From the NCBI GenBank assembly GCA_964385105.1, contig CAYLMU010000002.1:53672-117671 (forward strand): a DNA stretch of 64,000 nucleotides, given 5' to 3'. The notes below the pieces were generated by a model. The model was not told where the DNA came from. It did not search any database and was given only the letters and a program-made list of their open reading frames with translations. The first letter of the stretch is position 1. Each line of letters starts with the position of its first letter. This stretch comes from an uncultured Candidatus Saccharibacteria bacterium. GTDB taxonomy: Bacteria; Patescibacteriota; WWE3; UBA101185; UBA10185. The translations under genes were made by a program, and so were the position numbers. This document shows, piece after piece, positions 18,713-54,069 of this stretch.

Positions 18713-19699
18713 ATGAATTTATTACCCGAATATTTTGATATACAGTCATTTAGAATTAGCACTGCAGCAATCTTTTTTGGACTAAGCTTTTTTACCGCGC
18801 TTTTTGTTTATTGGCATGAAACACGTCGTGATGGATTTGAAGAAGAAAGAGCTTTTGACCTATTTATATTTTTGAGTATATTTTCTTTGATTTTTTCAAG
18901 AATTGTAGATGGACTATTAAGTAATATTCCAGTCTCAGCACTTGTTTTTCACGTTATATATTTTTGGCGAGATGGGTATAGCATATGGGGAGCAATTATT
19001 GGAAGTATGATTCCGCTTTTTTTTCTAACAAAAAAGTGGAAATGGTCAATTTTTAGAATTTCAGATACCTTGTCTTTATCTTTATCTATTGGGTTGGCAG
19101 TTTATTTGTTGGGGTCTGCTGTTACTTACAATTATCCAAAATACATAGTTTTGTCTTTTGTTTTTTTTACACTTTATATAATCCTATCTAAAATAAGACT
19201 AAAATATAAATCCGGTTTGGCAACATCGGTGTTTTTGGCAATAAACGCAGTAATTTGGCCCGCATATAACTTGGAGTATTTGCCATTTTCAGCAGTATTA
19301 ATTACAATTAGCGTAGTAAATCTTTACTATAGAGAAAAGAAAAATCCTATGAACTCCAAATTACCGGCAAATTTTATAAAAAATATCAAAAATATATTAA
19401 AGAAAAAAGAAGCAGAAATTGAAACTGAGCAAACTCAGTTATTAAGTGAAGACCCATACTTAGCAGAAGGAAGAGACTCTGTAGATGAATATCTTGACGA
19501 TGCAAAAGAGGATGAGTTTAAAGCTGTAAATGATTTGAGACTGGCTTCTTTGGCTACAATAAAAAGACAAGTAAGAAAAGCATTAGGTAAAATTAATATT
19601 GGTTCTTATGGAATTTGTGAAGTTTGCGGTGAGCCTATTAATAAAGAACGTTTAATTGCATACCCTGAAGCTACAACCTGTGTTAAACACGGTGAATAA
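18713..19699 (+). CDS. Polytopic membrane protein with a C-terminal DksA/TraR-type C4 zinc finger
   Basis: About 230 aa of TM helices, then ...LGKINIGSYGICEVCGEPINKERLIAYPEATTCVKHGE. Confidence 0.55.
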   Translation: MNLLPEYFDIQSFRISTAAIFFGLSFFTALFVYWHETRRDGFEEERAFDLFIFLSIFSLIFSRIVDGLLSNIPVSALVFHVIYFWRDGYSIWGAIIGSMIPLFFLTKKWKWSIFRISDTLSLSLSIGLAVYLLGSAVTYNYPKYIVLSFVFFTLYIILSKIRLKYKSGLATSVFLAINAVIWPAYNLEYLPFSAVLITISVVNLYYREKKNPMNSKLPANFIKNIKNILKKKEAEIETEQTQLLSEDPYLAEGRDSVDEYLDDAKEDEFKAVNDLRLASLATIKRQVRKALGKINIGSYGICEVCGEPINKERLIAYPEATTCVKHGE

Positions 19700-20111
19700 A
19701 AAGCTTTTATTATACTTTTTAGTTTCACTTGCACAAATTACATTGTTAGCATTAATACTTAGAAATCTTTCGCTTAGGCTATTGTGGGAGCAAAAGCTAA
19801 ATTGTACGTTCAGTGATGAGAAAAATATAATTGTTTTTTTGATGATTATAGTTGTGGGGTTGTTTTTGTTTTCAATCAAAAAATATATAAAAAATTCTTT
19901 AAGCTCATATATGGCAGGTATTATTGTTGGGGGAGGGTTATTTCATTCACTTGAGCGGTTTTTAACGGGATGTGTTGTGGATTATTTTAAATTTAGTGGG
20001 CTGTATTTTAATATAATTGACGTATTTATAGTAATATCTGTTATGTACTTTATTTATATAGTGCTAGAATTAAAGAGCCAAAATGAAAAAAATATTACTA
20101 ATCGAAGATGA
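19656..20111 (+). CDS. lspA: Probable lipoprotein signal peptidase (signal peptidase II), divergent; start uncertain
   Basis: C-terminal GCVVDYFKF and FNIIDVFIVISVMYFI resemble the LspA catalytic Asp regions; 4 TM segments. The ORF start overlaps the upstream gene by 44 nt. Confidence 0.4.
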   Translation: MHTLKLQPVLNTVNKKLLLYFLVSLAQITLLALILRNLSLRLLWEQKLNCTFSDEKNIIVFLMIIVVGLFLFSIKKYIKNSLSSYMAGIIVGGGLFHSLERFLTGCVVDYFKFSGLYFNIIDVFIVISVMYFIYIVLELKSQNEKNITNRR

Positions 20112-20457
20112 AGTTGATATAAAAGATTTATATACTGAATTTTTAGAGTATGCGGGTTTTAAGGTAATTTCTGCGACAGATGGAGAAGAGGGAATAGCAT
20201 TGGCTCGATCTGAAATATGGGATTTGATGCTGCTTGATATTATGATTCCAAAAGTTAATGGTGTGGATTTACTAAAAAATTTAAACGAAAACTATTTAAT
20301 TAATTCCCGGCCAATTATTATGTTAACCAATTTAGGAGAAGAGAATTTAATAACAGAATGTTTAGAAAATGGTGCAACCGGCTACTTAATAAAGGCAGAA
20401 ATTACTCCCGATAAGATACTTAATGAAGTACAAAGTTATTTAAATCAGGAGAATTAA
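20083..20457 (+). CDS. Stand-alone response-regulator receiver (CheY-like) protein
   Basis: ILLIEDE...D at LLDIMIP...LTN...K; no output domain. Confidence 0.75.
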   Translation: MKKILLIEDEVDIKDLYTEFLEYAGFKVISATDGEEGIALARSEIWDLMLLDIMIPKVNGVDLLKNLNENYLINSRPIIMLTNLGEENLITECLENGATGYLIKAEITPDKILNEVQSYLNQEN

Positions 20458-20458
20458 T

Positions 20459-20830
20459 ATGGTAAAGGTTTTAATTGTAGAAGATGAAACAAGTTTGCTT
20501 GAACTATATGCAGAATTTTTGAAATCAGAAGGATATGATGTAATACAAGCTATAGATGGAGAAATGGGTGTTGAGAAAGCTATAAATGAAGACTGGGACA
20601 TCATGTTTTTAGACATAATGTTGCCTAAGCTTGATGGGCTAGAAGTACTTAAGAAAGTAAAAACACAAGTAGATATTACAAAAAAGCCTATCGTTATGCT
20701 GACGAATTTGGATAATCCTGATGTAGTAAAAGAATGTATTTCAGAGGGCGCAAAAGAATATTTATCAAAAGCAGACATTATACCCCAAACCATCGCTGGA
20801 ACTGTTAGAAAGTATGTTTCCAAAGAGTAA
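20459..20830 (+). CDS. Second stand-alone receiver-domain protein, paralog of the upstream gene
   Basis: VLIVEDE...FLDIMLP...MLTNLD; CAGGAGA SD; starts 2 nt after the stop of the previous gene. Confidence 0.75.
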   Translation: MVKVLIVEDETSLLELYAEFLKSEGYDVIQAIDGEMGVEKAINEDWDIMFLDIMLPKLDGLEVLKKVKTQVDITKKPIVMLTNLDNPDVVKECISEGAKEYLSKADIIPQTIAGTVRKYVSKE

Positions 20831-20838
20831 TACTTTTT

Positions 20839-21537
20839 ATGGATTTAAAAATCATTTTTGAAGATGAGAAAATTTTAGTAGTTAATAAACCTACAGGATT
20901 AATTGTTAATAAATCTCATACAGCTCCGGTAAATACGTTGCAGCAAATGCTTTCTAATTATATTGATGTATCAAGATTTGGTGATGAAAATAGTGATTTT
21001 GTAAACCGTAATGGAATTGTACACAGGTTGGATAAAGATACATCCGGCGTGTTATTAGTTGCCAAAAATCCTGATACTTTTTCAAATCTTCAAGCGCAGT
21101 TTAAAAACAGAAAAGTTAAAAAAGAATACATTGCGTTAGTTTTTGACAAGATTAATAATGACAAAATTCACATTGACGCTCCAATAGCTCGTGACCCAAA
21201 AAACAGAGTTCGTTTCACAATTTCACAAAGTGGCAAAGAGTCTATAACCAAAATAAAGTTACTCAACACATTGCAGATTAATGATAAATGGTTGAGTTTG
21301 GTAAATGTTCAGCCGCTAACGGGCAGAACACATCAAATAAGAATACACATGTTGGCAATAAATCATCCTGTTGTAGGAGATTTCATATATTCCGGAAAGG
21401 GTCGATTAGCTTGGGCAAAGGAGCATGGTTTTGATAGATTAATGCTTCACGCACATAAAATTGGAATTTTGTATCCAAATAATGAATACACCTGGTATGA
21501 AACAGAACTTCCTAAACAGTTTCATGATTTTGTATGA
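20839..21537 (+). CDS. RluA-family pseudouridine synthase
   Basis: HRLDKDTSGVLLVAKN catalytic Asp motif. Confidence 0.8.
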   Translation: MDLKIIFEDEKILVVNKPTGLIVNKSHTAPVNTLQQMLSNYIDVSRFGDENSDFVNRNGIVHRLDKDTSGVLLVAKNPDTFSNLQAQFKNRKVKKEYIALVFDKINNDKIHIDAPIARDPKNRVRFTISQSGKESITKIKLLNTLQINDKWLSLVNVQPLTGRTHQIRIHMLAINHPVVGDFIYSGKGRLAWAKEHGFDRLMLHAHKIGILYPNNEYTWYETELPKQFHDFV

Positions 21538-21604
21538 AACAGATTTAAAAAATATAACTTTCTACTTGATTTCCCACGAATAAATATGCACAATAAACAA
21601 TAGA

Positions 21605-22738
21605 ATGCCCCATAAAACTGCCAAAAAGCCTTTAAAAAAAAGAACATCTAAATCTTTATCCTCAACAAGAAAAGCAAAAAAGCAAGCGCATAGTAAAACT
21701 TGGAGGAAGGCTGCAAAAGTACGAAGAGCAAAGAATGCTAGAAAAGAACTTGTTTTGAAATATGTGTCTATTTTTGCACTTTTTACAATATCGTTTTTGT
21801 TTTTATTCGCAGTTGTGTCATACAAAAAGTTGACACTTCCATTTGCTTCAGCATCCTCAAACACATCATCTGACATAAAAAATGAAGAATTATATGTTAT
21901 TTCACTTCTTGTCGTTGACAATTTTGAATCTGATACTCTACAAACAAATACCGCATACAAAATCTTTCTAAATTTTGAAAACAATTTGGTACATGTTTAT
22001 AAATTGGACGGTAATTTACAACTGGATGTAATGGGTAAATATACATATGAACCACTTTCAAAAATTGCATTGCTTGGAAAGAGTATAAATAACAATACTA
22101 ATGAGAAAGGATTTGAAATGACTGATCAAACCATGCAAAATCTTTTTGGATATGCGAGCAATAGATATATTGTAGTAGATGAAAATATGAGATTAACAGC
22201 TGAGAGGCTATTTCTTGAAGGTAAGTCCGAAATTCCACTTAGTCTGGACTTTTTAAATATGCTTAATAAGTCTGTAATTACCGACTTTTCAGCGTCAGAA
22301 ATGTATTATGTTTATCAATTTATGACATCGTTACCTGCAGGAAGTATTGTGATTTCTGAAGTAAAAGAATCTCATGTTGATGAGCCTGAAATTCTTGATA
22401 AACAAATTAGAGATATCACGTTTGATTCTATTGTAGCCCGAGAAAAGAAAAATATAGCTGTTTTAAATGGCACGTCACTGCCGGGATTAGCAACTTTTGG
22501 CTCACGGGTAATAACTAACTTAGGCGGTCGTGTAATTTCTTCGGATAACGCAACGAAACACTATGAAGAAAGTGTATTAATAGTAGATGATAAAAATTCT
22601 GAAAGTGTGAAACAAATACAGCAATTTTTTGATGTGGCAAAAGTAGTAGAGAAGGATAATTCTAATTATTATGAAAACGAAGTGATTCGAGCAGACATTG
22701 TTTTGATTTTAGGTCTTGACATGGAAAATAGGCTGTGA
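21605..22738 (+). CDS. LytR-CpsA-Psr (LCP) family envelope protein: basic N-terminal tail, TM anchor, LCP core and LytR_C domain
   Basis: LYVISLLVVDN...SDT resembles the LCP LLGsD motif. C-terminal KKNIAVLNGTSLPGLATFGSRV resembles LytR_C. Confidence 0.55.
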   Translation: MPHKTAKKPLKKRTSKSLSSTRKAKKQAHSKTWRKAAKVRRAKNARKELVLKYVSIFALFTISFLFLFAVVSYKKLTLPFASASSNTSSDIKNEELYVISLLVVDNFESDTLQTNTAYKIFLNFENNLVHVYKLDGNLQLDVMGKYTYEPLSKIALLGKSINNNTNEKGFEMTDQTMQNLFGYASNRYIVVDENMRLTAERLFLEGKSEIPLSLDFLNMLNKSVITDFSASEMYYVYQFMTSLPAGSIVISEVKESHVDEPEILDKQIRDITFDSIVAREKKNIAVLNGTSLPGLATFGSRVITNLGGRVISSDNATKHYEESVLIVDDKNSESVKQIQQFFDVAKVVEKDNSNYYENEVIRADIVLILGLDMENRL

Positions 22739-22804
22739 GAATATATGTATTAGCGTAGTCTCTCTCCTTTTTCAACCCCCGTCCCAAATTAGGGCGGGGG
22801 TTAT

Positions 22805-25294
22805 ATGATTTTATATGTAGTTTTGCCGGTAATTTTAATAGGTGGTATTTTAGGGGGTTTTTATAAGCTTAAGAAAAAAAGCGTCACTATAACATTAGAA
22901 GATCAGGAAATAGTGATTTTAGAAATACAAGTTCCTAAAATAGAAGAGGAAAGTTTAACAGACACACATATTTTTTCACTTTCTGCAGAACATTTATTTG
23001 CATCACTTCATGGATTACTTCAAGACAATACGGTAGAGCAGGAATGTTTCTCTTTTGAAATCAGCTCAGATTCAACCGGAATACGTTTTTTTATGACAGC
23101 ACCAAGAGGCATAATAAAATTTGTAGAAAGTCAGCTTTATGCCCAATATCCAAAAGCGCAACTAAAAATTATTGATGATTATGTAAAAACCGAACTATTG
23201 GAACATAGATTCTATGAAGTAGGTACTTTTTCGTTGAGAAAAGATTACTTTTTTCCTATAAAAGTATTTAGAAATTTTGAAATAGACCCATTGGCAAATG
23301 TTATGGCAAGTTTATCGGAAATTAATGAGAGTGAGTCAATTTGGATTCAATATGTAATAAAACCAATATCCGACGGTTGGCAGCAACCGGGACATGATTA
23401 TATTGACATGATTAAAACAGGAACTCAGCCGAGAAGTGAGTCGCTTTTTACCTGGTTTATTACAGGACTGATTAGAGAGCTAAGTTTAGTTATAACAGAA
23501 ATTCCTACAGCACTTTTTAGGCCAAGTGAGCCTACTGTTCGAGCTCCTGCAAAACCTGCCGGAAGTGAAGAAGTTAGGTTAACCACTTTTCAGGAACTTG
23601 AAATTTCATCAATTGAAGAAAAGCTGGCTAGACTAGGTTTTGAAGTGGTAATAAGAGTTGTATCAACAGCAGAAGATGAAGCCCGTGTAAAAAGCAATTT
23701 AAGGTCAATTAATGCCTCATTTAAGCAGTTTACAGGAACAAATTTAAACGAATTGGTTTTAAACATTTCAGACAGCAAGGAAGCAGCAATAGAAAAATAC
23801 AAAAAACGTTATTTAGATGTAGAAGAAGCTATAACCTTAAGCAATGAAGAAATCGCAACCGTGTTTCATTTACCTTCAACAAGAGCTAAAGCCCCAAATG
23901 TGTCATGGGTTTATTCAAAACAAGGTGAGCCGCCGTCAATGCTTCCAACCGAAGATGTGACTTATATCGGCGAAACCATATTTAGAGGGAAAAAAGTTCG
24001 ATTTGGATTACGCAACGGTGATGATCGATTAAGACATATGTACTTAATAGGTAAAACCGGAAGCGGTAAATCAACTTTACTTGAAACCATGATTTATCAG
24101 GATATATTAAATGGCCATGGTGTAGGCGTTCTTGATCCGCATGGCGAAACAATTGACCACATTTTAGAAAGAATACCTGATGAGCGTGTTGATGATGTTA
24201 TTTTATTTGATCCATCCGATACAGAAATGCCCATCGGATTAAACTTGCTTGAGATAGATGACCAGTCACAAAAAAATCTTATGACTTCAGCTTTGTTATC
24301 GGCAATTAAACAGCATTTTGATTTTTCATGGGGTCCCAGACTTGAATACTTGCTTAATTACGCACTCTTAACTCTAGTAGAAGTTCCGGGTACCTCAATG
24401 TTAGGTATAACCAGATTATTAGAAGACAGAAATTATCAAAACTACATTTTACATAAAGTACAAGATCCAATTATAAGACGCTTTTGGGAAGAAGAATTTA
24501 AAGAAATGCGCGGAAATCAAAAACTAGTAACAGAAGCAATTGCTCCGATTCAAAACAAAGTAAACAGATTTTTAGCTTCAACAACAATTAGAAATATTTT
24601 GGGGCAGAGAAATTCCACATTTAGTATCTGGGATGTCATGCAAGGCCGCAAGATTCTATTAATGAACTTATCAAAAGGTAAAATAGGGGAGGATAATGCA
24701 AATTTGTTGGGGGCGCTATTGGTTTCAAGAATACAATTTATGTCATTGCAAAGAGCAAGAATTGCGCCTGAAGAGCGTGTTCCTTTTTATTTATATGTAG
24801 ATGAATTTCAAAACTTTGCAACCGGAAGCTTTGAATCTGTGTTATCGGAGTCAAGAAAATATAAACTGGGGCTGTATCTAACTCACCAATACACCTCACA
24901 GCTTCCTGATGAGCTCTTAAAGGCCGTTTTTGGTAACGTGGGTACAATTGCGTCTTTTTCACTTGGCGCTCCTGATGCACGGGTTTTATCAAGTGAGTTT
25001 GCTCCATATTTTGATGAAGAAGACATAATATCTTTGGAAAGATTCCATATTTATATTAAACTTATGATAGACGGCATGACATCGCTTCCTTTTTCGGCTA
25101 AAATATTATTGCCGTGGAACGAAGAAACATCAGTCGCTCCAAAAACAGGCAATAAAGAACTGGTTATAGAAAGAAGCAGACAAAGATATGGTAGAGATAG
25201 GGCATATGTGGAAGAAGTGATTAAACGCTGGGTAGAAAGACCGTTTGATAAGGGAATGGCAATTGCCGAAGAGCACAAAGAAAAGCAAAATTAA
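22805..25294 (+). CDS. Membrane-anchored P-loop ATPase of the FtsK/HerA/VirB4-VirD4 (DUF87-like) superfamily
   Basis: N-terminal TM helix, a 400-aa N-domain, Walker A YLIGKTGSGKSTLLE...VLDPHGE, Walker B YLYVDEFQNF, and SRKYKLGLYLTHQYTSQL. Confidence 0.6.
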   Translation: MILYVVLPVILIGGILGGFYKLKKKSVTITLEDQEIVILEIQVPKIEEESLTDTHIFSLSAEHLFASLHGLLQDNTVEQECFSFEISSDSTGIRFFMTAPRGIIKFVESQLYAQYPKAQLKIIDDYVKTELLEHRFYEVGTFSLRKDYFFPIKVFRNFEIDPLANVMASLSEINESESIWIQYVIKPISDGWQQPGHDYIDMIKTGTQPRSESLFTWFITGLIRELSLVITEIPTALFRPSEPTVRAPAKPAGSEEVRLTTFQELEISSIEEKLARLGFEVVIRVVSTAEDEARVKSNLRSINASFKQFTGTNLNELVLNISDSKEAAIEKYKKRYLDVEEAITLSNEEIATVFHLPSTRAKAPNVSWVYSKQGEPPSMLPTEDVTYIGETIFRGKKVRFGLRNGDDRLRHMYLIGKTGSGKSTLLETMIYQDILNGHGVGVLDPHGETIDHILERIPDERVDDVILFDPSDTEMPIGLNLLEIDDQSQKNLMTSALLSAIKQHFDFSWGPRLEYLLNYALLTLVEVPGTSMLGITRLLEDRNYQNYILHKVQDPIIRRFWEEEFKEMRGNQKLVTEAIAPIQNKVNRFLASTTIRNILGQRNSTFSIWDVMQGRKILLMNLSKGKIGEDNANLLGALLVSRIQFMSLQRARIAPEERVPFYLYVDEFQNFATGSFESVLSESRKYKLGLYLTHQYTSQLPDELLKAVFGNVGTIASFSLGAPDARVLSSEFAPYFDEEDIISLERFHIYIKLMIDGMTSLPFSAKILLPWNEETSVAPKTGNKELVIERSRQRYGRDRAYVEEVIKRWVERPFDKGMAIAEEHKEKQN

Positions 25295-25302
25295 GAATTA
25301 AT

Positions 25303-26034
25303 ATGTCTGAAATACAAAAACTAAAAGAACAATTAGCCCAAATAAAAAAAAGTGTAGAAAGAATTGAGAAAGAGTTAGCAAGGCTGGAGAAGGGAAGTGG
25401 TAATGGGTCGGCAAAGAAGCCGGCAGTAGCAGAACAGGATAACGAACCTGGTGTTGTTGGAACATTTGATGGGTTTAACATGCTCACTGATTCAGGTGAA
25501 AAGTTTGAAGTACCGTCTAACTATGCAGCTAAATCCAGACTTGTTTATGGCGATAAGTTAAAAATGACCGAAACTGACGGGAAGAAGTTTTTTAAACAAA
25601 TCGAAAAAATTCCGCGTCGAAAGATAGAAGGGATAATAAATAAAAAAGAAGGGAAATGGTACTTTTTATCTCATGCCGGTTCATATAGAATTTCTGACAC
25701 AGCTGCTGAGTACAATTCGGTAAGGCTTAATGACGAGGCAATTGCACTTATTCCGGAAAATAACATAAATGCACCTTTTGCTACACTTGATAAGGTAGTA
25801 ACACCTGCATCACAACCACAACCGGCACAACAAAAGCCTAATCAACCAAAGCTTAAAAATAATAATGAATCAAATGAGCCAAAATCTGCTGCTCCGGCGA
25901 ATCCAGCCCCTCAAAAAGGTTTACCCACAGAATCACCCGAAGCAGAAATAAATTTAAAAACTGAAGACACCAAACCGCAAGCCCCTGAATTACCTGACAA
26001 CCCAAGAATTATTGCAGAAGAAGACCTTCGTTAG
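25303..26034 (+). CDS. Hypothetical protein: N-terminal coiled coil with a Pro/Gln/Asn-rich low-complexity C-terminus
   Basis: 243-aa ORF immediately after the ATPase gene. Confidence 0.45.
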   Translation: MSEIQKLKEQLAQIKKSVERIEKELARLEKGSGNGSAKKPAVAEQDNEPGVVGTFDGFNMLTDSGEKFEVPSNYAAKSRLVYGDKLKMTETDGKKFFKQIEKIPRRKIEGIINKKEGKWYFLSHAGSYRISDTAAEYNSVRLNDEAIALIPENNINAPFATLDKVVTPASQPQPAQQKPNQPKLKNNNESNEPKSAAPANPAPQKGLPTESPEAEINLKTEDTKPQAPELPDNPRIIAEEDLR

Positions 26035-26132
26035 TATCAATCGTACTTGGCGCCGTAATGGAAAATTTTAGATAAATAAAAAAAGTAAATTCAAAGTTTG
26101 CTATTAGTCTTTTGCTATTAGACTGTAGTCAA

Positions 26133-26813
26133 CTATTCAACTTCCTCAGTTTCGTCATCATAACTCTCAACTTCAAGTTCAGGTTCATCAATTGAGCCTT
26201 TTCTCATATATGGTGTCACGTCTTGCTTTTCGCCTTTAAATACAGGTATAGTGGTTTGAATAAATAATGTCATTTCTTTTTCGCTTCCTTTTAAAAAGTA
26301 AGCTTTCGAGCTGCCACCCTCACGTTTTACTTTATTTAATGATTTTAACAAGTGTGCGTCTTTAATTTCTGTAACCTTTTTTCCGTTATATGATGCGCTT
26401 ATGAATGAGGTGTTTACTTTAAGTTCCAATTCTTCGCCATAGCTCATGTGGTTTGCTGTAATTCCTTTTTCAGTGATTACAGTTTTTATTTCAGTAGTTG
26501 TACCCGGTTCTTTAATAAATGATCTACTGTTTGCTGTTTTTATTCCATTTGTTGTTTTGTGGCTCTTTGCAAGTTCTAAATTCTTTTGGGCTACGGAGTT
26601 AATGGGATCTATCTTCAAGACTTCCTGGTATAGTTTTTTTGCTTTATCAAATTCTTTTGTTTTAAGATAAGCGTTTGCAAGTCTTACCTTTGCTTTTATG
26701 TTTAAGGGGTCTGTTTTTAAAATCTCCTTATTTATTTCAATAGCATCTTTCCAGCTTTCGCTGAGGGCAAGTTTTATCGCTTTTTTTTCTAACTGAGGTG
26801 TATTATTTCTCAT
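26133..26813 (-). CDS. TPR-repeat protein
   Basis: Three TPR-like units, e.g. AKVRLANAYLKTKEFDKAKKLYQEVLKIDPIN. Confidence 0.6.
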   Translation of the reverse strand: MRNNTPQLEKKAIKLALSESWKDAIEINKEILKTDPLNIKAKVRLANAYLKTKEFDKAKKLYQEVLKIDPINSVAQKNLELAKSHKTTNGIKTANSRSFIKEPGTTTEIKTVITEKGITANHMSYGEELELKVNTSFISASYNGKKVTEIKDAHLLKSLNKVKREGGSSKAYFLKGSEKEMTLFIQTTIPVFKGEKQDVTPYMRKGSIDEPELEVESYDDETEEVE

Positions 26814-26892
26814 TTCAACTAGTAAAACTTTACCGAAATTTGAAACTTTGTCAATATGAAATTTTTATAATCCCCATGATACAATGTTGAAC

Positions 26893-27432
26893 ATGGCAGG
26901 ACATTCCAAGTGGCATAATATAAAAAGAAAAAAAGAAGCAACGGACGCAAAAAAAGGCCAGCAGTTTACAAAAGTCAGCCGATTAATTACTGTTGCAGCA
27001 AGAAATGGTGGGGGAGATCCTGATTCTAACCCTTCACTAAGGTTGGCTATTGAAAAGGCAAAATCCGTAAATATGCCAAAAGATAATATTGAGAGGGCAA
27101 TTCAAAAGGGGACAGGCGGCTCAGACGGGGCAGGTTATGATGAAATTGTTTATGAAGGTTATGGTCCTGAGGGTGTGGCATTTATGGTATTTGCGCTTAC
27201 AGACAACAGAAACAGAACCGTGGCTGAAATAAAAAATATATTTGATAAACACGGGGGAACACTTGGTAATCCGGGTAGTGCCTCTTATATATTTGATGCA
27301 AAAACAAAAGAGCCTCTATTTTCTGTGCCCGTGTCTGATAAGTCGGTCATTGACACTTTAGAAAGCTTAACTGAGTCACTTGAAGAAAATGAGGATGTAC
27401 AAGATGTTTACTTTAATTACACAGAAGCTTAA
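26893..27432 (+). CDS. yebC: YebC/PmpR-family (DUF28) probable transcriptional regulator, shorter than typical
   Basis: [14 protein letters not shown]...[12 protein letters not shown]...[10 protein letters not shown]. Confidence 0.75.
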
Positions 27433-39825: not shown

Positions 39826-39878
39826 TGCATATGTAGCGTGAAGATTGATACAATAAATCTGCATAGCTATTGCTGCCC

Positions 39879-41657
39879 ATGTTAGATACAAAAATTGATA
39901 CAAACAAAGGAATAGAAGATGTACTGTATGAGCGTAACCTTATTAATGCCGACCAGTTGTCTGCCATTAAATTTGAACACGTTAATACCGGTAAAAATAC
40001 TCAGCAAATTATTAAAGAGCGCGGTTACGTAACAAATGAGGATTTTGTTAAAGCGTATGCGGAAGTATATGGAATTGAGTATATTAATCTGGAAGAAACC
40101 AAATTTGATAATACTGTATTAGATATTTTAAGCATTCAAATTGAAAAAAGGTATCAGGTTGTGCCATATAGGCTTGAAGGGGATATTTTGCATGTGGCAA
40201 TGGCTGACCCCTTAGATTTACAAACTATTGAGTTTTTAGAGCAAAAATCCGGATATCAGATAAAACCTTACGTTTCAACAGTTAAAGAAATAGAAAAAGT
40301 ATTAAGTGAGCAGCAAGGAAAAGCAATAACTCAAGAAATAAGTGCTGCAATGGAGGAGATTTCGCAGACTACCTTAAAGCTTAAGGGTGACTCGGGAGAT
40401 ATTGAAGCTGATGAAGCAACAATTAGAGATGCCCCGATTGCAAGAATTGTTGGAATGATACTTGAAACGGCAGTAAAAATAGGTGCATCCGACATTCACA
40501 TAGAACCTTTAGAAACTTTAACAAGACTGCGCTACCGAGTTGACGGTGTTTTGCTTGAAAAAAGGACTTTTCCTAGAGAAATGCACGATTCTATTGTTGC
40601 CCGTATAAAAATCCTGGGAAACATGAAAATTGATGAGAAAAGAATTCCTTTGGACGGCAGGTTTAAGGTTCAGGTGGGTGAAACAAGTACAGACCTTAGA
40701 ATTTCAACTCTACCTTCGGTTTATGGTGAAAAAGTTGTTATCAGGTTGTTAAAAGAAGAAGGAAATGTTTACACATTTAAAGATTTGGGGTTGCGTGGTT
40801 TGTCGCTAAAAAGATTTGAAGAAGCATTAATTAAACCGGTTGGGATGGTTTTGGTAACAGGGCCTACGGGTTCGGGTAAAACGGTTACAAATGCTACTGC
40901 TTTAAATAAATTAAATACAATAAAAGTAAATATTGTGTCAATTGAAGACCCTGTTGAAATTAGGGTGCCCGGTGTAACACATGTTCAGGTAAATCCTCAG
41001 GCAGGTTTAACATTTGCAACAGGATTAAGGTCATTTTTGCGACAAGACCCAAACATTATAATGGTGGGAGAGATACGAGACCAGGAAACTGCTGAACTTG
41101 CAGTACATGCCGCGTTAACGGGGCATTTAGTTATATCCACATTACACACAAATTCCGCAGCCGGTGCTCTACCCCGTTTACTTGATATGGAAGTAGAAAA
41201 CTTTTTATTGGCGTCTACTGTAAATGCTGTTTTAGCACAAAGACTTGTTAGAAGAATTTGTGAGTTTTGCAAAGAATCATATGAGGCTCCCGTAGAAGTT
41301 GTTGCAGAGATTAAGAAAGTTTTTGAAGATATTGAACCAAGCTCAACCATAATGCACAAAGACAAAGAAATTGCCGAAGCTATTAAAAAGATTAAAACCG
41401 ACAGTAAAATTGATTTATATAGAGGTAAAGGTTGTGATAAATGTGGGGGTAAAGGTTATAAAGGCCGAGTTGGAATATTTGAAGTTCTTGAAATGTCAGG
41501 CACAATTGCTCATTTAACATTAGAAAGTGCCCCTGCCGACAAAATTGAGAAAGCAGCAAAAGATGAAGGCATGATAACATTAATGCAAGATGGATATTTG
41601 CGTGTTGTTGAGGGTGTTACAACGCTTGAAGAAGTTATGAGAGTAGCAAAAAGTTAG
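39879..41657 (+). CDS. pilB: Type IV pilus assembly ATPase PilB (GspE family) with N-terminal MshEN-like domain and zinc finger
   Basis: Walker A GPTGSGKTVT; Asp box; His box; CDKCGGKGYKGRVGIFEVLE tetra-Cys motif. Confidence 0.9.
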   Translation: MLDTKIDTNKGIEDVLYERNLINADQLSAIKFEHVNTGKNTQQIIKERGYVTNEDFVKAYAEVYGIEYINLEETKFDNTVLDILSIQIEKRYQVVPYRLEGDILHVAMADPLDLQTIEFLEQKSGYQIKPYVSTVKEIEKVLSEQQGKAITQEISAAMEEISQTTLKLKGDSGDIEADEATIRDAPIARIVGMILETAVKIGASDIHIEPLETLTRLRYRVDGVLLEKRTFPREMHDSIVARIKILGNMKIDEKRIPLDGRFKVQVGETSTDLRISTLPSVYGEKVVIRLLKEEGNVYTFKDLGLRGLSLKRFEEALIKPVGMVLVTGPTGSGKTVTNATALNKLNTIKVNIVSIEDPVEIRVPGVTHVQVNPQAGLTFATGLRSFLRQDPNIIMVGEIRDQETAELAVHAALTGHLVISTLHTNSAAGALPRLLDMEVENFLLASTVNAVLAQRLVRRICEFCKESYEAPVEVVAEIKKVFEDIEPSSTIMHKDKEIAEAIKKIKTDSKIDLYRGKGCDKCGGKGYKGRVGIFEVLEMSGTIAHLTLESAPADKIEKAAKDEGMITLMQDGYLRVVEGVTTLEEVMRVAKS

Positions 41658-41682
41658 TATTTAAGTTTTAGGAGCCCTGCCC

Positions 41683-42762
41683 ATGGCTTTAAACACATCA
41701 CAAATATTAGAAAAAATTATTGAGCTGAGTGCATCAGACTTGCATTTAACTGTTGGAATGCCTCCTGTTATTAGAGTTAACACAAAATTAATGGTTCTTA
41801 AAGACCATAGTGTGTTAACTATTGATGAAATCTCACAATTTTTAACAAAAGTTTTAACACCTGAACAAAAAAATGTATTTGAAGTAAACAAAGAAGTGGA
41901 CTTTTCAGTAGCTCTTGGTAATAAAGCAAGGTTTAGGGTAAATGCTTTTTATCAAAAGGGTTACCCTTCGGTAGCGTTAAGAACAATACCAATGGTAGTT
42001 CCCTCTTTAGAAAGTTTACATTTACCTCCGGTACTTACAAAACTCACGCTTTTAAAGCAAGGGCTTGTTTTAGTTGTTGGACCCACCGGGCATGGTAAAT
42101 CTACCACAATTGCGTCAATGATTGACCACATTAATGAAACACGCTCTGAACATATTCTTACAATTGAAGACCCTATTGAATATATTTTTACAAATAAAAG
42201 ATCACTGGTTGAGCAAAGAGAAATGTATCTTGATACCCATTCATGGGATGCGGCTTTACGTTCTATTTTAAGGCAAGATCCAAATGTTGTATTTATTGGC
42301 GAGATGCGTGACACCGAAACAATTCAGTCAACATTAACAATTGCAGAAACGGGCCATTTGGTATTTGCAACACTTCATACAAATTCAGCGTCTCAAAGTG
42401 TAGACAGAATTATTAGTTCGTTTCCCGAAATTAAGCAACTTCAAATAAAAATGCAGCTTTCACAAGCTTTGGAAGCAGTTGTATCTCAGCGATTAATCGA
42501 ATCCCCCAACAAAGGAATGATTCCTGCAATTGAATTATTGTTAGCCAGCGACGCGGTTAAAAGTACAATAAGAGAAGGTAAAACACATCAGCTTGAAAAT
42601 ATTATAAGTACAAGCTCAAACATTGGAATGATAAATATGGAATCAAGTTTGGCACTTTTGGTTCAAAAAGGCGATATAACCATGGATAATGCATTAAAGT
42701 TTGCAATGAATCCTGAGTTATTGCGTCGCCTGTTAAAAAGTTATAGTTCAACAGAAAAATAA
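41683..42762 (+). CDS. pilT: Twitching-motility (retraction) ATPase PilT
   Basis: GPTGHGKSTT, GEMRD and AIRNLIRE-like motifs; 359 aa; AGGAG SD. Confidence 0.9.
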   Translation: MALNTSQILEKIIELSASDLHLTVGMPPVIRVNTKLMVLKDHSVLTIDEISQFLTKVLTPEQKNVFEVNKEVDFSVALGNKARFRVNAFYQKGYPSVALRTIPMVVPSLESLHLPPVLTKLTLLKQGLVLVVGPTGHGKSTTIASMIDHINETRSEHILTIEDPIEYIFTNKRSLVEQREMYLDTHSWDAALRSILRQDPNVVFIGEMRDTETIQSTLTIAETGHLVFATLHTNSASQSVDRIISSFPEIKQLQIKMQLSQALEAVVSQRLIESPNKGMIPAIELLLASDAVKSTIREGKTHQLENIISTSSNIGMINMESSLALLVQKGDITMDNALKFAMNPELLRRLLKSYSSTEK

Positions 42763-42768
42763 AACAAT

Positions 42769-43971
42769 ATGGCCGAATTTAACTACATTGCAATGGATAA
42801 TAAAGGTACAAGAAAATCAGGTACCGTTGATGCCCGTTCACGGGATACAGCTGTTTCACTTTTAAAAGAGCAAGGATACTACGTTTTATCACTTGAAGAA
42901 AAAAAATCTACATTTATGGATTCGTTTATAGAATTACGAGGTGTGCCGTTTGGTGACGTTGTTTCATTTACAAGGCAGTTTTCTACAATGATAGGAGCCG
43001 GTTTGGCTATTTCAAAAGCATTAAATGTACTGGCCGCACAAACTACAAATAATAAATTCAGAGGAATATTAAATGATGTATTGCGCGATGTAGAAGGAGG
43101 AGCGTCGTTAGCCGGGGCTTTGGGAAGGTTTCCTGACACTTTTTCTACAACATATCAGTCCTTGGTGGCTGCGGGTGAAGCGTCTGGCCGTCTGGATGAG
43201 ATTTTAAAAAGGCTTGCAGATACAATGGAGGCTGAGAGAGCCTTAAGGGCTAAATTTAAATCTGCAATGATTTATCCGGTAATAGTTTTAATTGCAATGG
43301 GAGGTGTTTTTATTATTTTAATGGTGTCTGTTGTACCTAAGCTTGCACAACTTTACGAAAGCATGAATATAGACCTTCCTTTAACCACTAAAATGATGAT
43401 TGCAGTATCGGAATTTATGTCTAATAATCTTATTTTGGTGATTTTAGGCATTTTTGGAACAATTCTTGGAATTCGATACTTTTTGCACACTCCCGGCGGC
43501 GAACTATTAAAATCAAGACTTTCACTTTCTATGCCTGTTTTTGGAAAGATAAATAAAAAGAAAGAATTAACCGAATTTACACGAACATTAGGTTTATTGG
43601 TAAATTCAGCAGTACCCATTGTAGATGCTTTAAATATTGTTAGTTCAGTTGTTACAAGCGAGGCGTATCGTGAAGGTGCAAAACAGGCAGCCGTGAGTAT
43701 AGAAAAAGGCGGAACTTTATCAAATTATTTAAAGCAAAATGAAAATTTTCCTCCAATTCTAGGAAACATGGTAGCCACAGGTGAAGAAACAGGAAAACTT
43801 GATGAAATTTTAGAAAGACTAGCCGACTTTTTTGACGAAGAAACAGAACATGCGGTTGAGAGTTTATCTGCCGCACTTGAGCCTGTGATATTAATTTTAC
43901 TTGGTGCAATGGTTGGATTTTTGATCATTTCGATTATTACACCTATTTACAAAATTACTGCTTCTATATAG
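42769..43971 (+). CDS. pilC: Type IV pilus platform protein PilC (GspF family)
   Basis: Two GspF repeats and 3 TM helices; N-terminal MAEFNYIAMDNKGTRKSGTVDA. Confidence 0.9.
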   Translation: MAEFNYIAMDNKGTRKSGTVDARSRDTAVSLLKEQGYYVLSLEEKKSTFMDSFIELRGVPFGDVVSFTRQFSTMIGAGLAISKALNVLAAQTTNNKFRGILNDVLRDVEGGASLAGALGRFPDTFSTTYQSLVAAGEASGRLDEILKRLADTMEAERALRAKFKSAMIYPVIVLIAMGGVFIILMVSVVPKLAQLYESMNIDLPLTTKMMIAVSEFMSNNLILVILGIFGTILGIRYFLHTPGGELLKSRLSLSMPVFGKINKKKELTEFTRTLGLLVNSAVPIVDALNIVSSVVTSEAYREGAKQAAVSIEKGGTLSNYLKQNENFPPILGNMVATGEETGKLDEILERLADFFDEETEHAVESLSAALEPVILILLGAMVGFLIISIITPIYKITASI

Positions 43972-44001
43972 CAAAATTACTGAAAGGGGGTGACAGAGAA
44001 A

Positions 44002-44511
44002 ATGAGAAATGGAAATAAAGGTTTTACGTTAGTTGAGCTTTTGATTGTTGTTGCAATTATTGGTATTTTAGCCGGTGCTGTGTTAATTGTTATTAACCCT
44101 ACCGAATTAATTAGAAGAAGCAATGACTCAAAAAGATTATCTGAGCTTGATACATTGAATAAAGCTCTTATTTTAGCAACAACCGATGGTGAAATAGTAT
44201 TAACAGCATGTGCTTCAAACTGTACTAGCGCAACAGGAACACAATCTATTGCCGGTTCGGGTTATGTCACATTCACAATTAATACAGGTATGACCGGATT
44301 AGGAAAATATCTTTCTACACTGCCTGTTGATCCGGTTAATGACACTGCAAGAGGTTTGTACTACTCTTACCAGGCAGATGCAACCAACCAGACATTTGAG
44401 TTAAACGCAGTTCTTGAGTCTTCACAGAACAGTGGAAGAATGGCAGCAGATGGTGGTAACGATAACGCAGTATTTGAGATTGGAACAGATCCCGGTCTTG
44501 ATTTACTATAA
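44002..44511 (+). CDS. pilA: Type IV pilin (class III signal: MRNGNKG|FTLVELLIVVAIIGILA)
   Basis: Prepilin cleavage site G/FTLVE with Glu at +5; AAAGGGGG SD; own terminator downstream. Confidence 0.8.
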   Translation: MRNGNKGFTLVELLIVVAIIGILAGAVLIVINPTELIRRSNDSKRLSELDTLNKALILATTDGEIVLTACASNCTSATGTQSIAGSGYVTFTINTGMTGLGKYLSTLPVDPVNDTARGLYYSYQADATNQTFELNAVLESSQNSGRMAADGGNDNAVFEIGTDPGLDLL

Positions 44512-44546
44512 AGCGTTATTATAAAGCTTAGCTTTGTATTAAAGCA

Positions 44547-44586
44547 AAAAGACCTGCTTATTTAATAAGCAGGTCTTTTGTTATAC
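44547..44586 (+). terminator. Rho-independent terminator after pilA
   Basis: aaaagacctgcttatttaataagcaggtcttttgtt. Confidence 0.6.
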
Positions 44587-44594
44587 TTTAAAGT

Positions 44595-45476
44595 ATGGAA
44601 ATTTTATTCTATGGGCTAGTATTTATTGCCGGTTTATTTATAGGTTCTTTTTTAAACGTAGTTTCAGACCGAGTGGTAAACGGTAAAAAACTTTTACTTG
44701 GACGCTCTGAATGTGATGAATGCCGCACCACACTTGGTTCAAAAGACCTTGTTCCCCTACTCTCTTTTATATCTTTGCGTGGCAAGTGCCGGTATTGTAA
44801 AGCAAAACTTTCATACTACTACCCTATTTCAGAAATTCTAACCGGATTAGTATTTGTTGGAATTGCACATTTACTCAACTTTTTTGAAAACGCCAACAAT
44901 TATTATGCGTGGGTTATGCTGGCATATTTAATTTTTATCGGAAGTGTTTACATTGTGCTATTTTTAACTGATATTAAATATACGCTAATACCCAATAAAG
45001 TGGTCTATCCTGCTATAGCCGTAATTGTATTATTCCTAATCGGAAACTTTTTGTACATAGTTTATAGTTCTTACAATAGTTTGCAAAGTGATGCTTTAGG
45101 CCCTTATTTAATCGAATCCGGTTTTTGGCAATTGCAAATGAGGCGAATGTTTATGGGGCTGGTTTACACTTTTATAAGTACTGTTGTAATTGCAGGGTTT
45201 TTTTGGGTATTGACGCGTATTAAAAATGGTGAAGCAATGGGCGGAGGAGACTTAAAACTTGCTATTTTAATTGGTTTGTTTAACGGATACCCGCGCAATA
45301 TTTTGGCAATTTTTTTGGGATTTTTATTTGGAGCTATAGCTAGTGTGCTGCTAATGTTCTTAAGGCGTAAAGGTATGAAGGATACTATTCCTTTTGGGCC
45401 GTTTTTGATTTTAGGAAGTGTTATTGCGTTTGTTTTTGGTAATAGGTTGATTGAGCTATATTGGGGGTTGTTTTAG
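44595..45476 (+). CDS. pilD: Prepilin peptidase PilD (A24 family) with N-terminal tetra-Cys zinc motif
   Basis: CDECRTTL...CRYCKAKL; 8 TM helices; catalytic Asp regions. Confidence 0.85.
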   Translation: MEILFYGLVFIAGLFIGSFLNVVSDRVVNGKKLLLGRSECDECRTTLGSKDLVPLLSFISLRGKCRYCKAKLSYYYPISEILTGLVFVGIAHLLNFFENANNYYAWVMLAYLIFIGSVYIVLFLTDIKYTLIPNKVVYPAIAVIVLFLIGNFLYIVYSSYNSLQSDALGPYLIESGFWQLQMRRMFMGLVYTFISTVVIAGFFWVLTRIKNGEAMGGGDLKLAILIGLFNGYPRNILAIFLGFLFGAIASVLLMFLRRKGMKDTIPFGPFLILGSVIAFVFGNRLIELYWGLF

Positions 45477-46251
45477 GGTTTGTTTTTTAAGGAGTAGTGT
45501 TTACTTAGTACTGTAGCTACTATTTTATGAAGCACTTCGTCTTCCACTATTTTCATTGAATACGTCCTAAAAAAGTCTGCAAGATGGTATGAAGCATACA
45601 TTAATGGGTCATCTCCATATTTATGACCGACTTCAATATATTTTTTAAGTCCGTAGTTTAATCCGTGTATGGGTATATCCCCCATTTCTACATCGTCAAA
45701 AAATTCTTTGTTGAAAACTTTTACTAAATCTAATGCTGCTTTTTCGTGTTCGGGAGTTGCGTTTTTATATTGATAAAGATAGTAAGCAGTATTTAAATTT
45801 TGGAGTAGGTGTTTTTTAAGTATAGATGCATTATAAACTACATAATTATATTGAATAATTGAAATATTCTTTAAGCTAGAGGTATAGTTTCTGGGGTCCT
45901 TAAAAACCCATACTAAGTGCTTAAAATTAACATGTCCCAGTCATACGCGCGACTACAAGTAACTGTGCTACTTGATGTAAATTTATAAATGGGAATAGAT
46001 TTTTGCCCCTATCTATTCTCATAAGATGCGTTTACTAGGGGCTTAGAGTTGTATACCAAGAATAATGAAACTTCAAATTTAGGAGCATATGTAAATTATT
46101 TTATTGTTAGCTTTTGAACGTGAGTTTGGTGTAGAATTTGATGGGGATTTTAAAGGCAGGACACCCCATAGTTGCATTACTTTACTGATACTGTATAATA
46201 GTCCGTAATTTAGAAATAACCGGCATAAGCCGGATAGCTCCTGGAGAGAAA

Positions 46252-46629
46252 ATGATGAAAAGATTAACCCTTTTAGTTCTGGTAGTGGTAGGGATGATTG
46301 TTACTTTGGGAATCAATGGTAGTGCTTTGTCATCGCCAGATGTTTCTGGCGGAGCACTTGAAATTGGGACTCCGGTAATCGTAATCCGTTATGATGGGGG
46401 GCAGTTAACAGTTGCTACGCTTGAACCATCCTCAAGAGTTTTTGACTTTGAGGTGGATGTAGCATCTGTTACTTTCCTAGAGTGTGGAGCCGTTGAACAC
46501 GTCCCCGTGTTTGCAGGTGATACAGGACTATTTGCCGGAATTTCCGAGGAAGTGTGGAGTAACGAACGTGTTGCAAGATTTAATCTTCAACAGCCGTTTG
46601 ATGCCTGCAACATCCTATACGGTAGATAG
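46252..46629 (+). CDS. Small secreted protein (125 aa) with signal peptide; GC-rich gene
   Basis: MMKRLTLLVLVVVGMIVTLGINGSALS; GGAGAG SD; hairpin terminator at about 46645-46690. Confidence 0.5.
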   Translation: MMKRLTLLVLVVVGMIVTLGINGSALSSPDVSGGALEIGTPVIVIRYDGGQLTVATLEPSSRVFDFEVDVASVTFLECGAVEHVPVFAGDTGLFAGISEEVWSNERVARFNLQQPFDACNILYGR

Positions 46630-46712
46630 CACTTTGTTTGTAAATCCGGATCGGTTTGTTTGCTTATGGTAAACATAGCCGATCCGTTTCATTCCGATTT
46701 AGCTAAATATCA

Positions 46713-46741
46713 TTGACATGTAAAAAAATCATTGTCATAAT
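46713..46741 (+). promoter_or_regulatory. Candidate promoter (TTGACA, 17 nt, CATAAT with an upstream TGT) that would give a leaderless or very short-leader mRNA for the 46750 gene
   Basis: cattgacatgtaaaaaaatcattgtcataatttattgtaATG. Confidence 0.35.
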
Positions 46742-46749
46742 TTATTGTA

Positions 46750-47376
46750 ATGTCCAATTATAGCCCCGAAATAAATTTGAATCTTAGTGAAAGTAGACGT
46801 GGGAATAGAAATTTGATCCTTGTTTCACTCCTAATAATTTTTGTTTTTGCTGTCACTTTATTGCTAATTTATACATATTATTTAAATTCAACAACTGAAA
46901 ATCAGGCCAAAGAAGACTCAGATATGTTGTTAAATACAGTTCCGCAGGATAGCTATAATGTAGTGTTTCCCAATGTTTCCTATTCAATTGATGCTGATGG
47001 AATGTGGAGACTAAAAGTATTTCAACCTATACTTAAAGAATTCGTATCTGAAAACGGGAATAATTATTTAGTGGTGGAATATGATGAAGGCAGTACAAAA
47101 GTTTCAAAAAGAGTGTTTGTAACGTCTAATAATACGGAATATTTGGATAGGATATCATTTAAAGAAGGTGATAACTTAAAACTTGTAACATTCGATGAAT
47201 TAAAGCAATTATTAAATACTGAAGGGCGGATTAGTATAAGTTATTTTGAAACAACCCCCACTATTGAATCGCTTACGGATGATTTTTGTTCCAATTTAGT
47301 TAGAAGATGCGCTTTAGCACGTTTGGATGTGGAGTATAAAAGCTATTTCATATCAAGTGAGGTTATAGAGCAATAA
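46750..47376 (+). CDS. Hypothetical N-terminally membrane-anchored protein (208 aa)
   Basis: TM helix LILVSLLIIFVFAVTLLLIYTYY; its stop overlaps the start of the next gene. Confidence 0.5.
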   Translation: MSNYSPEINLNLSESRRGNRNLILVSLLIIFVFAVTLLLIYTYYLNSTTENQAKEDSDMLLNTVPQDSYNVVFPNVSYSIDADGMWRLKVFQPILKEFVSENGNNYLVVEYDEGSTKVSKRVFVTSNNTEYLDRISFKEGDNLKLVTFDELKQLLNTEGRISISYFETTPTIESLTDDFCSNLVRRCALARLDVEYKSYFISSEVIEQ

Positions 47377-50354: not shown

Positions 50355-50355
50355 C

Positions 50356-51327: not shown

Positions 51328-51457
51328 CTTAATAAATGTTTGATTATTGACAGTATATAATTGCTGGTTCATACTTAAATATAGTAAGTCTGCCCATGTT
51401 AAACATTAAACAAATTTTAAAAAAATTTCATATACAAAACTTAAATAACGAAGGGAG

Positions 51458-51901
51458 GTGCAGAGCATGTTAAAGAGAACTAATGAAAAAGGTTTTACGT
51501 TAGTTGAGCTTTTGATCGTTATTGTAATTATTGGTATCTTGGCAGGATTAGTTATTACAATTATTAATCCTCGAAGAATGCAAATGAGATCAGGCCATTC
51601 AATTATAAGGGCTAATGTCGGTAGGGCTTGTCAAGCGATTATTGCATGTGCTTCTTCAACAACAACACCTGAAACATCTTGTAACACTGGTGCTTTAGCT
51701 GGATTTAATCAACCAAATACACCTAATGGTCAACCGTATCCAGTTAACCCTACTGTTAGTGCGCAAACGATTACATATGCAAATACACCTGTTGCTGCAT
51801 GGGATAACTGTCAATATACTTGCACATACTATAGGACTACTGTTGGTGGAAACCAAGGTGGTTCAAGCACTTTAGTAGGAACAAACTGTATCGACAACTA
51901 A
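51458..51901 (+). CDS. Type IV pilin and major-pilin candidate (MLKRTNEKG|FTLVELLIVIVIIGILAG)
   Basis: GAAGGGAGGTG SD; candidate upstream promoter (TTGACA at about 51345); strong terminator immediately downstream; 4 Cys in the C-terminal half. Confidence 0.8.
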   Translation: MQSMLKRTNEKGFTLVELLIVIVIIGILAGLVITIINPRRMQMRSGHSIIRANVGRACQAIIACASSTTTPETSCNTGALAGFNQPNTPNGQPYPVNPTVSAQTITYANTPVAAWDNCQYTCTYYRTTVGGNQGGSSTLVGTNCIDN

Positions 51902-51923
51902 CAACTTGCAAGAATTATTTTCA

Positions 51924-51953
51924 ACCGCCCCGGATATTCCGGGGCTTTTTTTT
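51924..51953 (+). terminator. Rho-independent terminator
   Basis: gccccggatattccggggc tttttttt. Confidence 0.7.
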
Positions 51954-51992
51954 AGCCTTGACACAAAAATAACATACAGCCATACTATAAAT

Positions 51993-53001: not shown

Positions 53002-53016
53002 TGTTATTATTTTAGT

Positions 53017-54068: not shown

Positions 54069-54069
54069 C

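Follow-up and report, generated by a model that had tools for sequence, protein, structure and literature searches.

A membrane-anchored ATPase of the type IV coupling protein family with a VirB4-like N-terminal domain in a WWE3-type Patescibacteria genome

We have analysed a 64,000-nucleotide stretch of the genome of an uncultured Candidatus Saccharibacteria bacterium (WWE3 lineage; contig CAYLMU010000002.1, positions 53,672 to 117,671; hereafter the window, GC content ~36%), and in it an 829-aa ATPase encoded downstream of a 377-aa LCP-like envelope protein. This ATPase is a member of the type IV coupling protein (T4CP) family and belongs to an unusual sub-type, with one membrane anchor, a VirB4-like N-terminal domain (N-domain) and a VirD4/TrwB-like motor. 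Its family appears to be the one already catalogued in Patescibacteria as 'T4CP homologues', and the window protein is an ordinary and well-conserved member of these orphan genes. We found no earlier description of its VirB4-like N-domain, partner genes or plasmid ancestry, nor of an RNA element located just upstream. With moderate confidence, we read the protein as an ATPase that passes a substrate to a membrane channel, likely a chromosomal type IV secretion system (T4SS) similar to MPF-FATA. Both open reading frames (ORFs) are present as claimed in an earlier note on this DNA, and so is the pilus locus that it placed in the same window (Table 1).

Domain structure and family assignment of the ATPase

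Sequence profiles put residues ~390-720 of the ATPase in the VirD4/TrwB-HerA superfamily. The Pfam models TrwB_AAD_bind (E = 1.2e-8, residues 410-701) and T4SS-DNA_transf (E = 3.3e-6) matched above their cut-offs, together with DUF87 (E = 1.6e-8, residues 388-632), and TrwB was the best sequence relative in the PDB. The NCBIfam matches were weak and limited to the P-loop (CedD, TraD and VirD4-like models). Full-length relatives with 22-25% identity were found by tblastn in plasmids of Bacillus, Streptomycetaceae and archaea, and also in SPO1-like phages, phage G, TP-84 and D6E. In a 24.7-kb plasmid of B. subtilis the genes that come after the homolog encode a Replic_Relax relaxase, a 'conjugal transfer protein', TcpE and VirB4 (AAA_10, E = 6e-107). 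The genes of an Embleya plasmid run PrgI, VirB4-like ATPase, homolog, Replic_Relax and NlpC/P60. In both operons the homolog, as the second ATPase, has the relaxase for a neighbour, the position of a coupling protein. Comparison of the candidate phyla radiation (CPR) family with the B. subtilis plasmid protein by hhalign gave a probability of 99.9% (E = 1.2e-35, 27% identity over 630 columns), along query residues 79-777 and including the N-domain. Since full-length homologs hold the coupling-protein slot of plasmid operons, we assign the ATPase to the T4CPs, in a sub-family with a VirB4-like N-domain. The T4CP and DUF87 matches and these plasmid relatives bear out the earlier description of a membrane-anchored FtsK/HerA/VirD4-like ATPase, and the best homology was not to a housekeeping ATPase with an unrelated role.

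The phage relatives include SPO1-like Bacillus phages such as SP8 (L095, 3770-6490) and the Geobacillus phages TP-84 (L094, 4764-7028) and D6E. The gene contexts in TP-84 and SP8 were uninformative, and the end-to-end match in PHROG (phrog_5156, E = 7e-97) is a family of unknown function.

The protein consists of a transmembrane (TM) anchor followed by the VirB4-like N-domain and a motor of the T4CP/VirB4 type. Helix prediction and reading of the sequence identified residues 2-23 as a hydrophobic helix. The KLKKK that comes next would by the positive-inside rule leave the bulk of the ATPase in the cytoplasm. The translation contains all the motor motifs quoted in the earlier note, without variation across 37 aligned sequences. 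The Walker A region reads IGKTGSGKST...LDPHGE (invariant G416, K417, G419, G421, K422 and S423) and the Walker B FYLYVDEFQNF, without any change from F661 to F671 including D666 and E667. The RKY...THQ block, SRKYKLGLYLTHQ at residues 683-695, has R684, K685, Y686, T693 and Q695 invariant and lines up with the TrwB segment RKAGLRVVAGLQ. The catalytic residues are thus intact and under strong constraint. Past the motor there is a tail of three predicted helices (784-795, 799-811 and 816-828) with invariant S791, R792, E803, W809 and F814-G817, where the partner protein described below may dock.

The earlier note had left the region between anchor and motor as a 400-aa domain of unknown function, an assignment that can now be refined. 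The N-terminal ~390 residues had no match in our Pfam search and correspond to PF26449/DUF8128 in precomputed annotation; a literature search for 'DUF8128' returned no papers. The AlphaFold2 model of the whole ATPase was of moderate quality (pLDDT 70). Used as a Foldseek query against the PDB it retrieved TrwK/VirB4 chains as the best matches (820-955 columns, E = 3e-10), and then DotL (2e-7), TrwB (1.6e-6), Cag-beta and HerA (4d2i, 1.5e-5). For the N-domain the best fold match was the VirB4 N-terminal domain, whose fold it is predicted to have. An all-helical insertion was predicted at ~487-613, between Walker A and Walker B and inside the span of the TrwB_AAD_bind match, and may correspond to the all-alpha domain of T4CPs. 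The C-terminal domains of VirB4 proteins likewise have a helical insertion.

Canonical T4CPs (VirD4, TrwB, TraD, DotL and Cag-beta) have in common with this protein the N-terminal membrane anchor and the P-loop motor, perhaps also the helical insertion predicted in it; the TrwB sequence and the T4CP profiles score best, and the plasmid homologs are found beside a relaxase. On the other hand, the ATPase has one TM helix where canonical T4CPs usually have two, it carries between anchor and motor a VirB4-like domain of ~360 aa that they lack, and the Patescibacteria gene is chromosomal, vertically inherited, duplicated and unlinked to relaxase or T4SS genes. With VirB4/TrwK it would share, judging from the model, a VirB4-type N-terminal domain followed by an ATPase domain. 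However, no match to CagE_TrbE_VirB was found in the ATPase with Pfam and AAA_10 reached 15.4 bits against a cut-off of 27.5, the protein bears its own TM helix whereas VirB4 relies on VirB3, and a separate true VirB4 exists in the plasmid operons and in Southlakia. HerA and FtsK/SpoIIIE are fellow members of the ASCE P-loop superfamily that gave weak profile and fold matches, but the ATPase has neither the HAS-barrel nor the NurA partner of HerA (NCBIfam score 17, cut-off 970). Neither does it have the 4TM, alpha or gamma domains of FtsK: FtsK_SpoIIIE stayed under its cut-off (19.4 bits against 24) and covered residues 389-431 only, with the gamma domain not matched, and a canonical FtsK is encoded separately in Saccharibacteria.

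Distribution, paralogs and partner proteins in Patescibacteria

Homologs of the ATPase are 56-68% identical across WWE3-type genomes, the identity to Saccharibacteria and Berkelbacteria proteins is ~40%, and the N-domain alone retrieves 1811 cluster representatives. Two paralog groups, A and B, could be distinguished. They are adjacent in three loci (L014, L020 and L028), always in the order B, small protein, A, with a sigma-like gene intervening before A in L020. With 39-40% identity to A and 32-35% to B the window ATPase stands nearer to A, and no second paralog was found in the window. In a rough neighbor-joining tree without bootstraps the CPR sequences formed one clade as opposed to the plasmid and phage members, with group B as the sister of group A and the WWE3 type taken together. 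The family is vertically inherited in Patescibacteria and highly conserved, with two old paralogs.

The neighbourhood is also stable. In the WWE3-type clade a synteny of ~15 kb is kept, with the order DnaB, EF-P, Lgt/DksA, two response regulators, RluA, LCP-like protein and ATPase, followed by a small protein, a TPR protein, YebC and a XerC-like recombinase. The context in Saccharimonadia comprises DprA, TopA, a protein with Sigma70_r4 and HARE-HTH domains and the ATPase, with FtsQ, MurG, FtsW and MraY on the opposite strand.

Actually, genes of this kind have been counted before. A survey counted 5,713 VirD4-like T4CP homologues across 2,918 Patescibacteria genomes, of which only 148 were near virB4; relaxases were almost absent and chromosomal MPF-FATA-like T4SSs widespread (Quinonero-Coronel et al. 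2025, PMC12102498). The earlier note supposed an organism without classic T4SS scaffolds, which in Patescibacteria at large is not the rule. Nearly every Patescibacteria genome has about two orphan T4CP-like ATPases, encoded elsewhere than the T4SS. The identity with our family is suggested by the same Pfam pattern (TrwB_AAD_bind at ~402-719 and DUF87) and the same location far from virB4 in SEML1_0293 and SEML1_0142, the two members of Southlakia, and for SEML1_0293 also by its Sigma70_r4+HARE-HTH and TopA neighbours, which match those of the Saccharibacteria loci. The survey treats a single non-essential 't4cp homologue', and neither the VirB4-like N-domain nor the small partner, the division into two paralogs or the RNA element appears in it (PMC12102498). 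TrsD, from MPF-FATA systems of the pGO1 type, stands alone as a protein and has a remote relationship to the VirB4 N-terminus. Its homologs are also abundant in Patescibacteria and mostly encoded next to virB4. They may offer a parallel to the stand-alone or split DUF8128 genes that we found in some loci, although these are not next to virB4 and follow a Sigma70_r4+HARE-HTH gene instead.

The gene for a 243-aa partner protein lies directly downstream of the ATPase in WWE3-type loci, and homologs of it are the small protein between paralogs B and A in the three loci with both. In some genomes the two are fused, with the partner at the C-terminus of the ATPase (P0133/L086; 40% identity, E = 1.5e-21). 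The N-terminal coiled coil of the partner leads into a conserved core (F-DG, NYAxKS and GD-LK), after which come a low-complexity linker and an acidic tip (EEDLR/DDDLR). No member had a Pfam domain or an informative name, nor any match among PDB sequences.

A different companion is the Sigma70_r4+HARE-HTH protein (336-366 aa), whose gene directly precedes that of DUF8128 in four distinct contexts: Saccharimonadia, the Berkelbacteria locus L020, L082 and L088. In L082 DUF8128 is a stand-alone protein of 421 aa between SMC and NusA, with the motor missing from the locus, and in L088 DUF8128 and the motor are separate adjacent genes located after SecA and SecDF. The window does not contain this protein (tblastn). 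Besides, some WWE3-type homologs of the ATPase have a C-terminal S1 domain, and the Saccharibacteria forms have long Arg/Gly-rich tails.

Proposed role and alternatives

The ATPase may form a membrane-anchored hexamer, as its relatives do, in which ATP would drive the transfer of a substrate to a membrane channel. The likeliest channel would be the chromosomal MPF-FATA-like T4SS, encoded elsewhere in a cluster of its own that lacks a coupling protein. The VirB4-like N-domain might dock on the inner-membrane platform in the way that of VirB4 does, and the downstream 243-aa protein would be an adaptor. The S1 fusions, the Arg/Gly-rich tails and the Sigma70_r4+HARE-HTH protein adjacent in relatives hint at a nucleic acid or a nucleoprotein as substrate. 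The LCP-like gene is a clade-specific neighbour, parted from the ATPase by the terminator-like RNA element.

The data on Southlakia are relevant here. Its T4SS is essential and the cluster has no recognisable coupling protein (Wang et al. 2023, PMC10633639). In the same transposon sequencing data one of its paralogs is essential and the other is not: SEML1_0142 and the preceding gene for a 139-aa protein, SEML1_0141, were both scored essential, and so was the Sigma70_r4+HARE-HTH gene SEML1_0294, which together with TopA precedes SEML1_0293 (TrwB_AAD_bind at 402-719). SEML1_0293 itself was scored non-essential, with insertion reads dropping from 5817 to 2940 and to 1372 over the time course (PMC10633639 and its supplementary tables).

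Several points weigh against a T4SS-feeding role. The non-essential score of SEML1_0293 contrasts with the essential T4SS, and the window ATPase would correspond to this gene by annotation and synteny only. Neither VirB4 nor Replic_Relax homologs were found in the 64-kb window; none of these, nor PilB, PilT or PilC, was found at up to 10 kb from the ATPase, either in the window or in ~88 CPR loci, and no T4SS genes of the VirB3, VirB6 or VirB8 type were recognised in the window or the neighbourhoods examined. With no VirB4, relaxase or pilus gene nearby, the link to a T4SS comes from homology alone, and the authors of the survey consider that exaptation of these genes is not excludable (PMC12102498). 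The connection between DUF8128 and VirB4 is structural only, as the N-domain profile finds no solved VirB4, and motor residues 669-771 were poorly modelled by AlphaFold2. The suggestion about the substrate is taken from fusions and neighbours in other genomes. An S1/OB fold of the partner itself was not supported: hhalign against the S1 domain fused in one homolog (P0103) gave a probability of 0.5%.

The features that the protein has in common with VirB4 bring up a different role, that of an assembly or energising ATPase of a T4SS or its pilus and not of a coupling protein that recruits the substrate. We regard this as unlikely, given that the profiles matched T4CP and DUF87 families and not CagE_TrbE_VirB or AAA_10, that the plasmid homolog occupies the place beside the relaxase in an operon with a true VirB4, and that Southlakia also has its own, SEML1_0008 (PMC10633639). 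The pilus locus of the window had led the earlier note to propose it as a partner of the ATPase. We rejected this pairing as unsupported, since 14.6 kb separate the ATPase from the pilus locus, a stretch that includes gyrA/gyrB among other housekeeping genes, and PilB, PilT or PilC were not found within 10 kb of the ATPase in the other CPR loci. This same absence argues against a DNA-uptake motor similar to ComFA, which would pull incoming single-stranded DNA through ComEC after its capture by the type IV pilus (comEC and comF were not searched for). For uptake speak the presence of the pilus locus, the non-essential Southlakia counterpart assigned by synteny (comEC is likewise non-essential), the location of DprA a few genes upstream in Saccharimonadia loci and the top NCBIfam match, the DNA-import ATPase CedD, in the P-loop only. 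However, the DprA-TopA adjacency is confined to one class among these loci and is common in bacteria generally, and the known relatives export DNA rather than import it, which makes uptake improbable.

Two further candidates come from the same ATPase superfamily. A HerA-like function in defence or DNA repair would be suggested by the PADLOC matches to mad8 (E = 1.9e-13) and HerA models, by DUF87, which is the central domain of HerA, and by the Foldseek match to 4d2i. This is very unlikely, because no nuclease, NurA, Sir2 or methylase partner is found nearby, the N-domain resembles VirB4 and not a HAS-barrel, and the stable housekeeping neighbourhood and vertical inheritance are unlike those of defence islands. 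Replacement of FtsK as septal chromosome translocase is hardly tenable. The membrane anchor with an FtsK/HerA-superfamily motor, the XerC/D-like recombinase 4 kb downstream and, in Saccharimonadia, the division genes nearby on the opposite strand would fit with it, but the Pfam FtsK match falls under the cut-off without a gamma domain and, above all, Southlakia has a canonical essential FtsK, SEML1_0096, with 4TM, alpha, motor and gamma domains (PMC10633639), which largely excludes this role.

Returning to the coupling-protein reading, a broader and rather doubtful extension of it is that the T4CP-derived motor with its VirB4-like docking domain and the small adaptor, joined in most classes by the Sigma70_r4+HARE-HTH protein, make up an ancient Patescibacteria-wide module that acts as a dedicated nucleic-acid translocase, with the CU-box/hairpin RNA as its regulatory leader. 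These ultrasmall organisms need bacterial hosts to live on, and their essential T4SS cluster is devoid of relaxase and coupling protein. If true, the module would move DNA or RNA between epibiont and host through this chromosomal T4SS or another channel, and would account for the existence of T4SSs without relaxases. The VirB4-like N-domain, the sometimes fused partner, the tie to the HTH protein and the descent from Gram-positive plasmid coupling proteins provide handles for testing whether the ATPase feeds the T4SS.

The upstream RNA element and neighbouring genes

The hairpin that the earlier note saw just upstream of the ATPase is real. It reads CCCCCGTCCC-AAATTA-GGGCGGGGG (22776-22801), ends 3 nt before the ATG, has no other exact copy in the window and is the strongest terminator-like site in 20400-27000 (folding energy -21.7 kcal/mol, z = -2.95). 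It is part of an element of ~60 nt made of a CU-rich box (GTCTCTCTCCTTT), a GC stem of 9 bp with one bulge and AAATTA as its conserved loop, and a U-rich tail reaching over the start codon of the ATPase. The element is located at the same position in 11 WWE3-type loci, and its conservation exceeds that of the flanking LCP proteins (25-36% identical). In the alignment 99% of the cells were paired, with compensatory changes in two pairs. With the covariance model these copies reached 62-80 bits and no other site in 1.53 Mb was detected, and two further metagenome copies were found in the same RluA-LCP context. Rfam has no family for the element and gave nothing above noise. Between the element and the ATPase start there are 3 to ~130 nt, depending on the locus, which makes a conserved terminator, attenuator or protein-binding leader more likely than a simple mask of the ribosome-binding site. 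This terminator-like RNA probably controls read-through or translation of the ATPase.

The protein encoded before the element is a degenerate LCP-like envelope protein, as far as its sequence can tell. A basic tail at its N-terminus is followed by a single TM helix, a divergent LCP-like core (~90-280) and finally LytR_C (PF13399, residues 284-371; E = 1.3e-5, 26.5 bits, cut-off 22.2), a domain that was also called in the orthologs. This is the layout of the LCP phosphotransferases TagT, TagU, TagV and LcpA, with basic tail, TM helix, extracellular LCP-like core and LytR_C. However, the catalytic Pfam family LytR_cpsA_psr was not detected in the protein, and the core was recognised through a profile of 11 orthologs, which among solved structures matched TagT (8.8e-6), LcpA/MsrR (1.3e-4), TagU (5.4e-4) and also TagV. 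The arginines with which TagT binds the pyrophosphate lipid (D-x-R, RSD and PRD) face non-basic residues in the alignment of the orthologs. Of the earlier 'LCP-family' assignment the LytR_C domain and, by way of the profile, the LCP-like core stand, but the catalytic arginines are not conserved, and the protein is probably inactive or acts on a different substrate. The gene is directly upstream of the ATPase in the 11 WWE3-type loci, and this adjacency is confined to the WWE3-type clade. Being restricted to one clade and embedded in the general synteny of ~15 kb, it gives no evidence of a shared function, and a functional coupling of the two proteins was set aside.

Table 1 Location of the ATPase, its motifs and associated features. 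Coordinates refer to the window unless another locus is named.
Feature	Coordinates	Strand	Basis or remark
T4CP-family ATPase, 829 aa, CPR 'A-lineage'	22805-25294	+	ORF, Pfam, NCBIfam, homologs, Foldseek, hhalign, tree
N-terminal TM helix, residues 2-23	22808-22873	+	Predicted helix and sequence reading
N-domain, residues 28-385, Pfam DUF8128, predicted VirB4 N-terminal-domain-like fold	22886-23959	+	
P-loop motor domain, residues 386-771	23960-25117	+	Pfam, PDB sequence match, Foldseek
Walker A GKTGSGKS, residues 416-423	24050-24073	+	37-sequence alignment
Walker B FYLYVDE, residues 661-667	24785-24805	+	37-sequence alignment
RKY...THQ block, residues 684-695, conserved motor motif past Walker B	24854-24889	+	37-sequence alignment
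Conserved C-terminal helical tail, residues 784-828	25154-25288	+	Predicted helices, invariant residues
Partner protein, 243 aa	25303-26034	+	Begins 8 nt past the ATPase stop codon
LCP-like envelope protein, 377 aa	21605-22738	+	ORF list
Intergenic element (CU-rich box, hairpin, U-rich tail)	22756-22818	+	Same site in 11 WWE3-type loci
Type IV pilus locus	~39870-57963	+	PilB, PilT, PilC, pilins, PilM/N/O-like
Copies of the intergenic element in other loci	L002 9824-9886; L004 9843-9905; L007 162-224; L012 1416-1478; L013 2860-2918; others		
Sigma70_r4+HARE-HTH/DUF8128 loci	L082 6915-9266; L088 4951-8796; L019 8770-12676; L020 8887-13192		

Other genes of the window deserve a short mention. The type IV pilus locus looks complete, and also holds a prepilin peptidase-like protein, several ORFs similar to minor pilins and a protein of 992 aa (47376-50354) with weak Ig-like or prealbumin-like matches only. 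Upstream of the LCP-like gene, a single ORF of 328 aa (18713-19699, forward strand) joins an N-terminal Lgt region (residues 5-130) to a DksA/TraR zinc finger at the C-terminus (297-324). Gene calls in related loci assign the finger to a short gene of its own or to a longer product. The ORF is followed by two stand-alone response-regulator receiver domains in tandem, of 124 and 123 aa (20083-20457 and 20459-20830, forward strand), which have no output domain and no kinase nearby and are conserved in the WWE3-type loci.

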